A DNA stretch of 64,000 nt from the NCBI RefSeq assembly GCF_003334355.1, contig NZ_QOWP01000015.1. One strand, written 5' to 3'. The notes under the pieces were generated by a model that was not told where the DNA came from, made no database searches, and saw only the letters and a program-made list of their open reading frames with translations. This document shows positions 16,384 to 44,044 of this stretch, in pieces. Both the position numbers and the translations under genes were made by a program. How positions within the stretch are numbered: position 1 is the first letter of the stretch; every line of letters starts with the position of its first letter. This DNA comes from Escherichia coli. Its GTDB lineage: Bacteria > Pseudomonadota > Gammaproteobacteria > Enterobacterales > Enterobacteriaceae.

Positions 16384-17811
16384 CTAGCGCGACTGCTGAT
16401 TATATTCATCATCGCGTTGATAAGCTTCATCATTCGGCTGCTCCGGAACCGACCGAAGTCGATACTCTTCATCCTGGCTCACCGCCTGTTCAGCCAAATC
16501 CGGATTAATCTCGCGTTTAATTTCTACTCCTAAACCGCGAAACGCTTCTGCCTGCGCCAGCACATTTCCGCGCCCTGAAGAGAGTTTTTTCATTGCCTGG
16601 CGATAGTTATCCTGCGCTTTGTCGAGACTTTGACCAATCGCTGACATGTCATCGACGAACAAACGCATCTTGTCGTACAGCTTGCTGGCACGATCGGCGA
16701 TTTGCTGGGCGTTGCGGCTTTGATGCTCATAACGCCACAGGTTGGCGATAGTGCGCAGCGCCACCAGCAGCGTAGTCGGGCTAACCAGCATGATATTGTT
16801 TTTCAACGCTTCGGTGATCAGCTCCGGCTGGCGGTCAAGCGCCAGTAAAAAAGCGGGTTCAACGGGAATAAACATCAGCACGTAATCCAGAGTTCGCAGC
16901 CCCGGCAGCTGTTGATAATCTTTGCGTCCCAGCAAACGGATATGGTTACGCACCGACGCGATATGTTCCTGTAGCGCGCTTTCGCGGGTGTAGTCGTCTT
17001 CGGCGTTAAAATAGCGTTCATAGGCGACCAGCGTCATTTTGGCGTCGATCACCACATCTTTTCCCTGCGGCAGGCGCACGATGACATCCGGCTGCATCCG
17101 CGAGCGGGCGTCATTTTCGATGCTGACCTGGGTTTCATATTCATACCCTTCACGCAGACCGGAAGCCTCCAGCACCCGCGTCAATACTACCTCGCCCCAG
17201 TTGCCCTGGGTTTTATTGTCGCCTTTCAGCGCGCGCGTCAGGTTGATCGCTTCCTGGGCCATTTGCGCGTTGAGTTGCTGGAGATTGCGAATTTCGTGGG
17301 TCAGGGTATGGCGTTCTTGTGCTTCTTTACCGAAGCTGTCCTGAACCTGACGGCGGAAACCGTCCAGTTGTTCACGTAGCGGCGACAACAGGCTGTTCAG
17401 ACTCTGACGGTTTTGCTCATCAACCCGGCGATTGCTGTGCTCAAAAATACGGTTGGCGAGGTTTTCAAACTGCTCACTGAGGCGCTGCTCGCTGTTAATC
17501 ATCTGGCGAATTTTATCGTCAGCATGTTGCTGTGCGGCTTCCATCCGCGTGGTTACTTCACGCAGATCGGCCTCCAGAGAGGTGTTAATACTTTGCAGGC
17601 TGCGCACTTCGTTATTGAGTAACTCGCACTCTGCACGCCAGTGCTCGCTTTGGGTAATTTGTTGTTTTGCCGCGCTTAACTCCGCGACCATCTCTTCACG
17701 TTCAGCTAATTGCTCGGCTTTTTGCTGCGCATGTTGATAACTGGCAAACAGCCAGCCAATTGCCACACCCACCAACGCAATAACTGCGTAAACCATGATT
17801 GAGAAATCCAC
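16384..17811 (-). CDS. rmuC: DNA recombination protein RmuC (YigN)
   Basis: 475-aa ORF with N-terminal TM helix and long coiled-coil region; synteny udp-rmuC-ubiE. Confidence 0.92.
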   Translation of the reverse strand: MDFSIMVYAVIALVGVAIGWLFASYQHAQQKAEQLAEREEMVAELSAAKQQITQSEHWRAECELLNNEVRSLQSINTSLEADLREVTTRMEAAQQHADDKIRQMINSEQRLSEQFENLANRIFEHSNRRVDEQNRQSLNSLLSPLREQLDGFRRQVQDSFGKEAQERHTLTHEIRNLQQLNAQMAQEAINLTRALKGDNKTQGNWGEVVLTRVLEASGLREGYEYETQVSIENDARSRMQPDVIVRLPQGKDVVIDAKMTLVAYERYFNAEDDYTRESALQEHIASVRNHIRLLGRKDYQQLPGLRTLDYVLMFIPVEPAFLLALDRQPELITEALKNNIMLVSPTTLLVALRTIANLWRYEHQSRNAQQIADRASKLYDKMRLFVDDMSAIGQSLDKAQDNYRQAMKKLSSGRGNVLAQAEAFRGLGVEIKREINPDLAEQAVSQDEEYRLRSVPEQPNDEAYQRDDEYNQQSR

Positions 17812-17951
17812 AACGCCTCCTGACGCAACAACTTACCCGCACAAAATAGAATTGTGCTGTACAAACGTCCAGTTGGAAAGGCATTTCCTGCGAGGCGCTA
17901 CGCAAAAATACAAAAGGCCGAACGCGTCGGCCTTCAGACAGGAGAAGAGAA

Positions 17952-18713
17952 TTACAGCAGACGACGCGCCGCTTCCACCACGATTTTCACCGCTTGGCTT
18001 TCAGTTTGTTTCATCGTCTCAGCATTCGGGATCTCTTGCTGGGTGCGGTTAACGATAACACCCGCTACCATACCGGCACGCAGGCCCTGACTTGCACACA
18101 TGGTCAGCAGGGTTGCAGATTCCATTTCATAGTTCATTACGCCCATCGCCTGCCACTCTTCCATAGAACCTTTAAAGTGACGAACTACGCGACCAGAGTA
18201 AGTATCGTAACGTTCCTGACCTGGGTAGAAGGTATCAGAAGAAGCTGTCACGCCAACGTGAGTTGTCGCGCCAATGGATTTCGCAGCTTCAACCAGCGCA
18301 GTCGTACATTCGAAATCAGCGACAGCCGGGAATTCCAGCGGTGCGAAGTGCAGGCTCGCGCCATCCAGACGGACAGACGCCGTGGTAACCAGGACATCAC
18401 CCACATTAATATGCGGCTGAATAGCGCCCGTTGTACCGATACGCAGGAAGGTGCGAATGCCCAGCTGTGCCAGCTCTTCAACAGCAATAGAGGTAGACGG
18501 GCCGCCGATACCGGTAGAGCAGACGATAACAGGTTTACCATCCAGCTCTGCACGCCAGGTGGTGAATTCGCGGTGAGATGCCAGCTTAACCGGCTTATCC
18601 ATCAGCGCGGCGATCTTTTCCACACGATCCGGGTCGCCAGGGACGATGGCAAGCGTAGCCCCTTGTAAATCGTTTTTAGTGAGGCCGAGATGAAAAACAT
18701 CAGACTTGGACAT
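17952..18713 (-). CDS. udp: Uridine phosphorylase
   Basis: Track ORF starts at an upstream alternative start; recognised Udp N-terminus [13 protein letters not shown] at ATG 18713 (253 aa). Confidence 0.95.
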
Positions 18714-18786
18714 ATACAACTCCTCTGTGAATCGGTTTAGTCAGAAGAAGCAAAAAGACACTTTACCGAAGGGTTTAACATTTTTT

Positions 18787-18802
18787 CGTGATACTCATCA
18801 CC
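18787..18802 (-). promoter_or_regulatory. CRP site (promoter-proximal) in udp promoter
   Basis: cGTGAtactcaTCACc matches the TGTGA-N6-TCACA CRP consensus; coordinates +/-2. Confidence 0.5.
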
Positions 18803-18838
18803 ATGACGCAAATGCGTTGCATAAATTTACCCACCAAA

Positions 18839-18854
18839 AGTGATTCAAATCACA
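18839..18854 (-). promoter_or_regulatory. CRP site (distal) in udp promoter, CytR-type tandem arrangement
   Basis: aGTGAttcaaaTCACa; centre about 52 bp from the proximal site, the spacing typical of CytR-regulated promoters. Confidence 0.5.
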
Positions 18855-18974
18855 TAAATCACTCTTCATTCTGCAGGACTGCATAAAAGATGAGCCGATT
18901 CAGGCAATGTGATTTGTTGCATGCTGACTATAGTTAACATTGCGCAACATTTTTATAAGGGTACGGAGAATACC

Positions 18975-19790
18975 ATGGCAACAACACAACAATCTGGATT
19001 TGCACCTGCTGCATCGCCTCTCGCTTCGACCATCGTTCAGACCCCGGACGACGCGATTGTGGCGGGCTTCACCTCTATCCCTTCACAAGGGGATAACATG
19101 CCTGCTTACCATGCCAGACCAAAGCAAAGCGATGGCCCACTGCCAGTGGTCATTGTAGTGCAGGAAATTTTTGGCGTGCATGAACATATCCGCGACATTT
19201 GTCGCCGTCTGGCGCTGGAGGGGTATCTGGCTATCGCACCTGAACTTTACTTCCGCGAAGGCGATCCGAATGATTTTGCCGATATCCCCACGTTGCTTAG
19301 CGGTCTGGTAGCAAAAGTGCCTGACTCGCAGGTGCTGGCCGATCTCGATCATGTCGCCAGTTGGGCTTCCCGCAACGGCGGCGATGTTCATCGTTTAATG
19401 ATCACCGGATTCTGCTGGGGTGGACGTATCACCTGGCTGTATGCCGCGCATAATCCACAGCTAAAAGCCGCAGTGGCGTGGTACGGCAAACTGACGGGCG
19501 ACAAGTCGCTGAATTCACCGAAACAACCTGTTGATATCGCAACCGATCTTAACGCGCCGATTCTCGGCTTATATGGTGGTCAGGATAACAGCATTCCGCA
19601 GGAGAGCGTTGAAACCATGCGCCAGGCGCTGCGGGCTGCTAATGCGAAAGCAGAGATTATCGTGTACCCGGACGCCGGGCATGCATTCAACGCTGATTAT
19701 CGCCCGAGCTATCATGCCGCATCTGCAGAAGATGGCTGGCAGCGTATGCTGGAATGGTTTAAGCAGTATGGTGGGAAGAAGTCGCTGTAA
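18975..19790 (+). CDS. ysgA: Dienelactone hydrolase family protein (putative carboxymethylenebutenolidase) YsgA
   Basis: Track ORF from 18909; 271-aa form begins [12 protein letters not shown] at ATG 18975 after ACGGAGA RBS. Confidence 0.85.
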
Positions 19791-43871: not shown

Positions 43872-44026
43872 GACGTATCGCCTGATTTGCTACCCGTCAT
43901 GACTGTGATTCCGCCAACATCAACGGTAACACGCGGCATTCGGGATATTTCGTATGTCAAAGGTAACCGTTACCACTTTTCGCGCCTGGTTTTTTTAGTT
44001 TCACGACGAAAAAATGGTCTAAAACG

Positions 44027-44044
44027 TGATCAATTTAACACCTT
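44027..44044. promoter_or_regulatory. Candidate CRP site in cyaA promoter/leader
   Basis: cGTGAtcaattTAACAc, partial match to TGTGA-N6-TCACA in the cyaA-hemC divergent region. Confidence 0.35.

Follow-up and report, generated by a model that had tools for sequence, protein, structure and literature searches.

The 262-bp intergenic region between udp and the divergent gene ysgA in the 64,000-nucleotide stretch of DNA analysed here (the window) almost certainly contains the udp promoter udpP, at which class II activation by CRP is countered by CytR through anti-activation and this repression is relieved by cytidine. Two CRP sites lie in this region, a very strong distal one and a weak proximal one, 52 bp apart and separated by a CytR operator (Table 1). 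From the window itself we establish where the sites lie, how far apart they are, how well statistics and evolution support them, and that they are identical to published reagents and ChIP-seq targets; the mechanism of activation and repression is taken from the K-12 literature and carried over to the strain from which the window derives. The architecture of the udp promoter is already known and well characterized, and what we describe is a textbook promoter, not a discovery. The window belongs to Escherichia coli: every one of 5426 complete E. coli genomes contains a match to the 501 bases around the sites, with udp and ysgA annotated beneath it. By coordinate conversion it spans about 3.971-4.035 Mb of the K-12 chromosome, and both cytR and crp lie outside its 64 kb. 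An earlier, sequence-only reading of this DNA had placed tandem CRP sites upstream of udp, which is borne out; it left unstated that udp is on the minus strand, with its ATG at 18713.

Table 1. Features of the udp/ysgA region, in window coordinates; promoter positions are relative to the inferred +1 at 18753
Feature	Sequence	Position	Strand	Basis or remark
Distal CRP site (CRP-2), 22-mer, in udp orientation	TTATGTGATTTGAATCACTTTT	18836-18857	minus	PWM rank 1
CRP-2 core	AGTGATTCAAATCACA	18839-18854		Centre 18846.5, at -93.5
Proximal CRP site (CRP-1), 22-mer	CATGGTGATGAGTATCACGAAA	18784-18805	minus	PWM rank 3
CRP-1 core	CGTGATACTCATCACC	18787-18802		Centre 18794.5, at -41.5
CytR operator	TATGCAAC-GCA-TTTGCGTC	18805-18823	minus	Match to published operator; centre about -61
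Distal CytR octamer	TATGCAAC	18823-18816	minus	Better octamer
CytR operator spacer, 3 bp	GCA	18815-18813	minus	
Proximal CytR octamer	TTTGCGTC	18812-18805	minus	Poorer octamer; abuts CRP-1 22-mer
-10 hexamer	TAAAGT, within GGTAAAGT	18760-18765	minus	Sigma-70 -10 of udpP, Table S1 of PMC2760140
Transcription start zone		18748-18757	minus	454 end 18748; inferred +1 18753; SMRT-Cappable-seq 18757
Shine-Dalgarno sequence	GAGGAG	18720-18725	minus	6 nt before udp ATG; read from sequence
udp CDS, uridine phosphorylase, 253 aa		17952-18713	minus	ORF list and annotation in all matching E. coli genomes
udp intrinsic terminator	9-bp stem, then T run	17903-17935	minus	Terminator scan
ysgA, putative dienelactone hydrolase		18976-19790	plus	Divergent to udp

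Two matches to the CRP consensus, about 52 bp apart, had been claimed for the interval 18780-18860. Both strings are present there, and their centres are separated by exactly 52 bp (18794.5 and 18846.5). The CRP-2 core departs from TGTGA-N6-TCACA at a single position and is the only site in the window with one mismatch or none; the CRP-1 core has two mismatches. Counts of this kind would suit an explanation in which an AT-rich intergenic region happens by chance to resemble the CRP consensus twice: matches with up to two mismatches are common and not enriched (15 in the window versus 25.1 ± 4.5 in shuffles), and those with at most one mismatch number 1 in the window versus 1.8 expected. Matches with up to two mismatches are in fact rarer than in dinucleotide shuffles, all 100 of which held at least 15. 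As consensus counting alone shows no enrichment, a matrix and a pair statistic are needed. The CRP matrix used here is symmetrised, 22 nt long and built from 29 sites in Table S4 of PMC2760140, with udp left out. A matrix scan, which the sequence-only reading had proposed as a check, ranks CRP-2 first (23.65 bits) and CRP-1 third (12.58 bits) among about 64,000 positions. The second-ranked match, AAACGTGATCAATTTAACACCT, scores 13.1 bits and lies at 44022-44043 (core 44025-44040) in the hemC/cyaA intergenic region; its core, CGTGATCAATTTAACA, is listed for the hemC/cyaA CRP ChIP-seq peak of enterotoxigenic E. coli (ETEC) H10407 (PMC4287617), so that the matrix has a positive control in this site, which presumably mediates CRP autoregulation at the adenylate cyclase promoter. 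The top three matches of a simple matrix in the window, udp CRP-2, hemC/cyaA and udp CRP-1, are thus all CRP sites reported elsewhere. Weighing against chance, a pair of sites of at least 12.5 bits placed 50-54 bp apart arose in 0 of 1000 dinucleotide-preserving shuffles, and any site of at least 23.65 bits in 2 of the 1000.

The pair is also well placed relative to the udp core promoter. Table S1 of PMC2760140 lists GGTAAAGT as the udp sigma-70 -10 element, assigns it to the known udpP with a promoter distance of 5, and gives a 454-sequenced udp 5' end, supported by 7 reads, 35 nt upstream of the ATG. From this promoter distance and the sign convention of the other rows in the table, we infer that the RegulonDB udpP start lies 40 nt upstream of the ATG, at window 18753. 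A start at this position would put TAAAGT at -12 to -7, CRP-1 at -41.5, the proximal position of class II promoters (about -41.5), and CRP-2 at -93.5; the sites had been predicted at about -41 and -93, which fits both this start and the invariant -10 box. SMRT-Cappable-seq reports a udp-only transcript running from K-12 4016387 to 4017234 in two data sets (PMC6131387), and its start, converted through the K-12 alignment, is window 18757, 44 nt upstream of the udp ATG. The reported 5' ends therefore scatter 35-44 nt upstream of the ATG, and none of them is incompatible with the two CRP sites, although the extreme ends would put CRP-1 at -46.5 or -37.5. A single -10 box lies just upstream of all of them, and the start zone overlaps a run of five T residues (18756-18752). 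The three sources place the udp 5' end at -35, -40 (as deduced from RegulonDB) and -44 from the ATG; the scatter could be technical, or could arise from a choice among start sites or from slippage along the T run. Coordinates for the udp locus were not found in the Cappable-seq supplements of PMC4782308. At the -35 position the sequence is CGAAAA, which shares 2 of 6 bases with TTGACA, and a generic sigma-70 scan called no promoter on either strand between 18600 and 19100; this silence is what a class II CRP promoter without a -35 element would produce, and hence is not counterevidence.

At the other end of the gene, the intrinsic terminator coincides with the SMRT-Cappable-seq transcript end (K-12 4017234, window 17910). 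Two further transcripts deserve mention. The SMRT-Cappable-seq data include a minor second udp-sense transcript from K-12 4016185 (window 18959, minus strand), which begins just downstream of an extended -10-like TGgTATTCT (18967-18975) overlapping the ysgA start codon and would traverse the whole CRP/CytR region. Despite udp's own terminator, the same files also list a read-through operon variant comprising b3831, b3832, b3833, b3834 and b4707; this variant, noted at window 16384-18713, starts with udp (b3831) and rmuC (b3832) and runs on through ubiE (b3833) into further downstream genes.

Between the CRP sites, where the sequence-only reading had suggested looking for a pair of CytR half-sites, lies a CytR operator made up of octamer repeats with a TGCAA/TTGCA core. 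The natural udp CytR operator oligonucleotide of NMR and binding studies, 5'-GTAAATTTATGCAACGCATTTGCGTCATGGTG-3' (bioRxiv 10.1101/2021.02.28.433298), is matched exactly at 18799-18830 on the minus strand; the 3-bp spacing of the octamers is as given in that study, and a RegulonDB-matrix scan also reported a CytR site here. The proximal octamer fits the GTTGCATT consensus poorly (5/8) and is variable even within E. coli. Patterns of the form TGCAA-N2-6-TTGC are not enriched in the window, and the operator is not recognisable by statistics alone; it is identified because it is identical to the published operator and conserved. ATGCAAC is a heptamer much rarer in the window than expected (3 copies versus 14.7), and two of its three copies fall in the udp/ysgA intergenic region, at 18916-18922 and 18816-18822 on the minus strand, exactly 100 bp apart. 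The upstream copy adjoins a lone TCACA and was considered as an additional CytR half-site; this candidate was rejected, being conserved only in Escherichia and Citrobacter and located in the likely ysgA promoter spacer.

A scan with the Udp protein, restricted to one genome per species, yielded 80 Enterobacterales loci from genera that include Escherichia, Citrobacter, Salmonella, Enterobacter, Leclercia, Kluyvera, Buttiauxella, Cedecea, Kosakonia, Yersinia, Serratia, Hafnia, Rahnella and Erwinia. In 74 of the 80 loci the highest-scoring CRP pair upstream of udp has a spacing of 52 bp and in five, all from Yersinia, one of 53 bp, in agreement with a comparative study that places the 22-nt udp CRP boxes 30-31 bp apart, equivalent to 52-53 bp centre to centre, in Enterobacteriales and Vibrionales (PMC3454398). 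The window, at 52 bp, falls within the range of about 50-53 bp expected of tandem CRP sites at such promoters. The one anomalous locus (L062, Yersinia aldovae) has a low-scoring best pair 46 bp apart, with a CRP-1-like sequence much further upstream, as in locus L059; the anomaly probably stems from the start codon or from the 330-nt limit of the search. The CRP-1 centre lies 78-87 nt from the udp ATG in nearly all loci. An information footprint of 74 distinct sequences anchored on the CRP pair sets the half-sites of CRP-2 (1.96 and 1.6 bits per position) and CRP-1 (1.72 and 1.87 bits) apart from their spacers (0.67 and 0.37 bits, respectively), and across genera the distal CytR octamer carries 1.04 bits per position versus 0.26-0.55 in the neighbouring columns between the sites. 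GTAAAGT, whose distance from CRP-1 is the same in all 74, approaches 2 bits per position. Within an Escherichia alignment the half-sites, TATGCAAC, TAAAGT and the 5' UTR are invariant; the CRP spacers and the proximal CytR octamer vary. Retention of spacing and half-sites in 79 of 80 loci is hard to reconcile with chance resemblance.

In vivo occupancy of this region by CRP is documented for another strain. ChIP-seq of CRP in ETEC H10407, a strain other than the source of the window, found a high-confidence ysgA/udp peak and assigned to it two sites, GGTGATGAGTATCACG and TGTGATTTGAATCACT (PMC4287617, Table 1); the former is CRP-1, and the latter is the window's own allele of CRP-2. Shuffles, conservation and the ChIP-seq peak together refute chance resemblance, whose probability we regard as negligible.

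That the region is bound by CRP leaves the question of which gene the sites serve. The CRP sites, and the distal one especially, could also or mainly serve ysgA as part of a bidirectional CRP/CytR unit; CRP-2 would then be shared, anchoring the CytR complex of udp while placing ysgA under the control of cAMP-CRP and perhaps of CytR. If so, ysgA, which encodes a dienelactone-hydrolase-family protein, would gain cAMP-CRP control from a site about 94 nt upstream of its predicted start. We consider both this arrangement and a shared CRP-2 unlikely, although several observations are consistent with them: (i) ysgA is divergent to udp in 79 of the 80 Enterobacterales loci; (ii) a conserved TTAACTATAG block holds a good -10 hexamer, TATAGT (18929-18934, plus strand), and CRP-2 would lie near -94.5 of the start predicted for ysgA (near 18941); (iii) CRP-2 is 81.5-82.5 nt from the TATAGT box in 32 of the 47 motif-bearing loci; and (iv) ChIP-seq and PhyloScan tables name the target ysgA/udp, a label that follows from the region being common to both genes. 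The geometry toward udp is far tighter, however: CRP-1 and the -10 box are separated by the same distance in 74 of 74 loci, and the CRP-1 to udp ATG distance stays within the narrow range given above, whereas CRP-2 is anywhere from 104 to 140 nt from the ysgA ATG. The experimental literature gives the sites to udp (PMC3454398; PMC4581735), and a role at ysgA would be additional to that at udp, not a replacement for it. No data on the start site or regulation of ysgA were found in the literature and start-site data searched. An attempt to use synteny breaks to separate udp-linked from ysgA-linked function failed because ysgA neighbours udp in all but one of the loci. On the ysgA side, the conserved block CTATAGTTAAC...TTGCGCAA extends over 18929-18947 on the plus strand; its TATAGT looks like a ysgA -10 box, and the 8 bp of TTGCGCAA (18940-18947) form a perfect palindrome. 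The ysgA protein evolves much faster than Udp, with YsgA identity of about 50% in Citrobacter and 82-84% in representatives of other Escherichia species, compared with 96-99% for Udp at the same loci.

Among known promoters, the nearest to that of the window is K-12 udpP (Brikun et al. 1996; Gavigan et al. 1999; RegulonDB). The locus is the same, and the 262-bp intergenic regions are identical but for two bases; both sets of CRP half-sites, the CytR operator, the -10 box and the 5' UTR are shared. One difference, at 18845, falls in the CRP-2 spacer (in udp orientation, TTTGAA in the window and TTTGCA in K-12), the other, at 18863, 6 nt upstream of the CRP-2 22-mer (A in the window, G in K-12), and neither is in a half-site. 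The TTTGAA allele removes a TGCAA core that overlaps CRP-2 in K-12. The window allele is common: the 46-mer at 18815-18860, which contains 18845, occurs exactly in 1205 of 5426 E. coli genomes and its K-12 version in 1888, while the remaining genomes carry other haplotypes, of which there are at least four.

The 18845 allele raises the prospect that the promoter in the window's strain is a CRP-only one, its control by CytR weakened or altered for want of this TGCAA/TTGCA core. The loss of a TGCAA motif from within CRP-2 and the high frequency of the window allele would be in keeping with such a promoter. Extra CytR sites at udpP presumably overlap the CRP sites. A CRP-only promoter would also be favoured by the work of Gavigan et al. 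(1999), whose title speaks of multiple CytR binding sites and of competition at udpP. We nevertheless judge a CRP-only promoter very improbable, since the main operator between the sites is the same as in K-12, the CRP-2 spacer shows, both within Escherichia and between genera, the free variation expected of unconstrained positions, and the CRP-2 matrix score is nearly the same for the two alleles (23.65 for the window and 24.6 for K-12). A minor possibility is that CytR competition at udpP is adjusted from one E. coli lineage to another by this common A/C polymorphism of the CRP-2 spacer.

We return to udpP as a promoter under joint control of CRP and CytR. In the K-12 model, cAMP-CRP bound at CRP-1 (about -41.5) would overlap the position of the missing -35 element and recruit RNA polymerase to a -10-only promoter (TAAAGT), which constitutes class II activation, and a second CRP dimer would occupy the much stronger distal site 52 bp upstream. 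Because 52 bp amounts to about five helical turns, the two dimers are expected to lie on the same face of the DNA. They would flank the weak CytR operator TATGCAAC-GCA-TTTGCGTC, to which CytR would bind cooperatively with both, and the resulting CRP-CytR-CRP complex would mask the activating function of CRP, repressing udp by anti-activation. Cytidine bound to CytR would break the CytR-CRP cooperativity and allow activation by CRP to resume, with the outcome that udp would be expressed when glucose is low and nucleosides are present. Published accounts agree that CRP alone activates, that CRP-CytR-CRP represses and that cytidine relieves this repression by acting on the cooperativity between CytR and CRP and not on DNA binding, and they assign one CRP site at udp to activation and both to repression (PMC3454398; PMC4581735). 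Heterologous cooperativity and anti-activation have long been studied at udp as a model locus, and our results leave this picture unchanged; they do indicate that a CRP-CytR-CRP architecture can be recognised correctly from sequence alone.

How closely udpP resembles other CytR-regulated promoters can be judged by applying the same CRP matrix to the K-12 intergenic regions upstream of deoC, cdd and nupG. The best CRP pairs are 53 bp apart at deoC and 50 bp apart at both cdd and nupG, and TGCAA/TTGCA motifs lie between the sites in each. The comparison with deoP2 and cdd that the sequence-only reading had called for thus reveals the tandem architecture it anticipated. Its description of 52 bp as the signature spacing is fair when widened to 50-53 bp, which is characteristic; 52 itself is no fixed number. 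Some CytR promoters are built otherwise, as exemplified by cytR, which has one CRP site (PMC3454398). The deoP2 promoter of deoCABD is like udp in having tandem CRP sites with a TGCAA-containing stretch between them and a proximal site about 85 nt from the ATG, and its spacing is 53 bp versus 52 bp at udp. It differs in the CytR half-sites, which have no spacer at deoP2 and a 3-bp spacer at udp (bioRxiv 10.1101/2021.02.28.433298), and in the strength of its CRP sites, which are both moderate (17.1 and 13.5 bits), whereas at udp the distal site is very strong and the proximal one weak. The cdd and nupG promoters likewise have TTGCA/TGCAA motifs between tandem CRP sites, but at cdd the strong CRP site is the proximal one, the opposite of udp, and at both cdd and nupG the two CRP sites contribute to activation, whereas only one does so at udp (PMC3454398).
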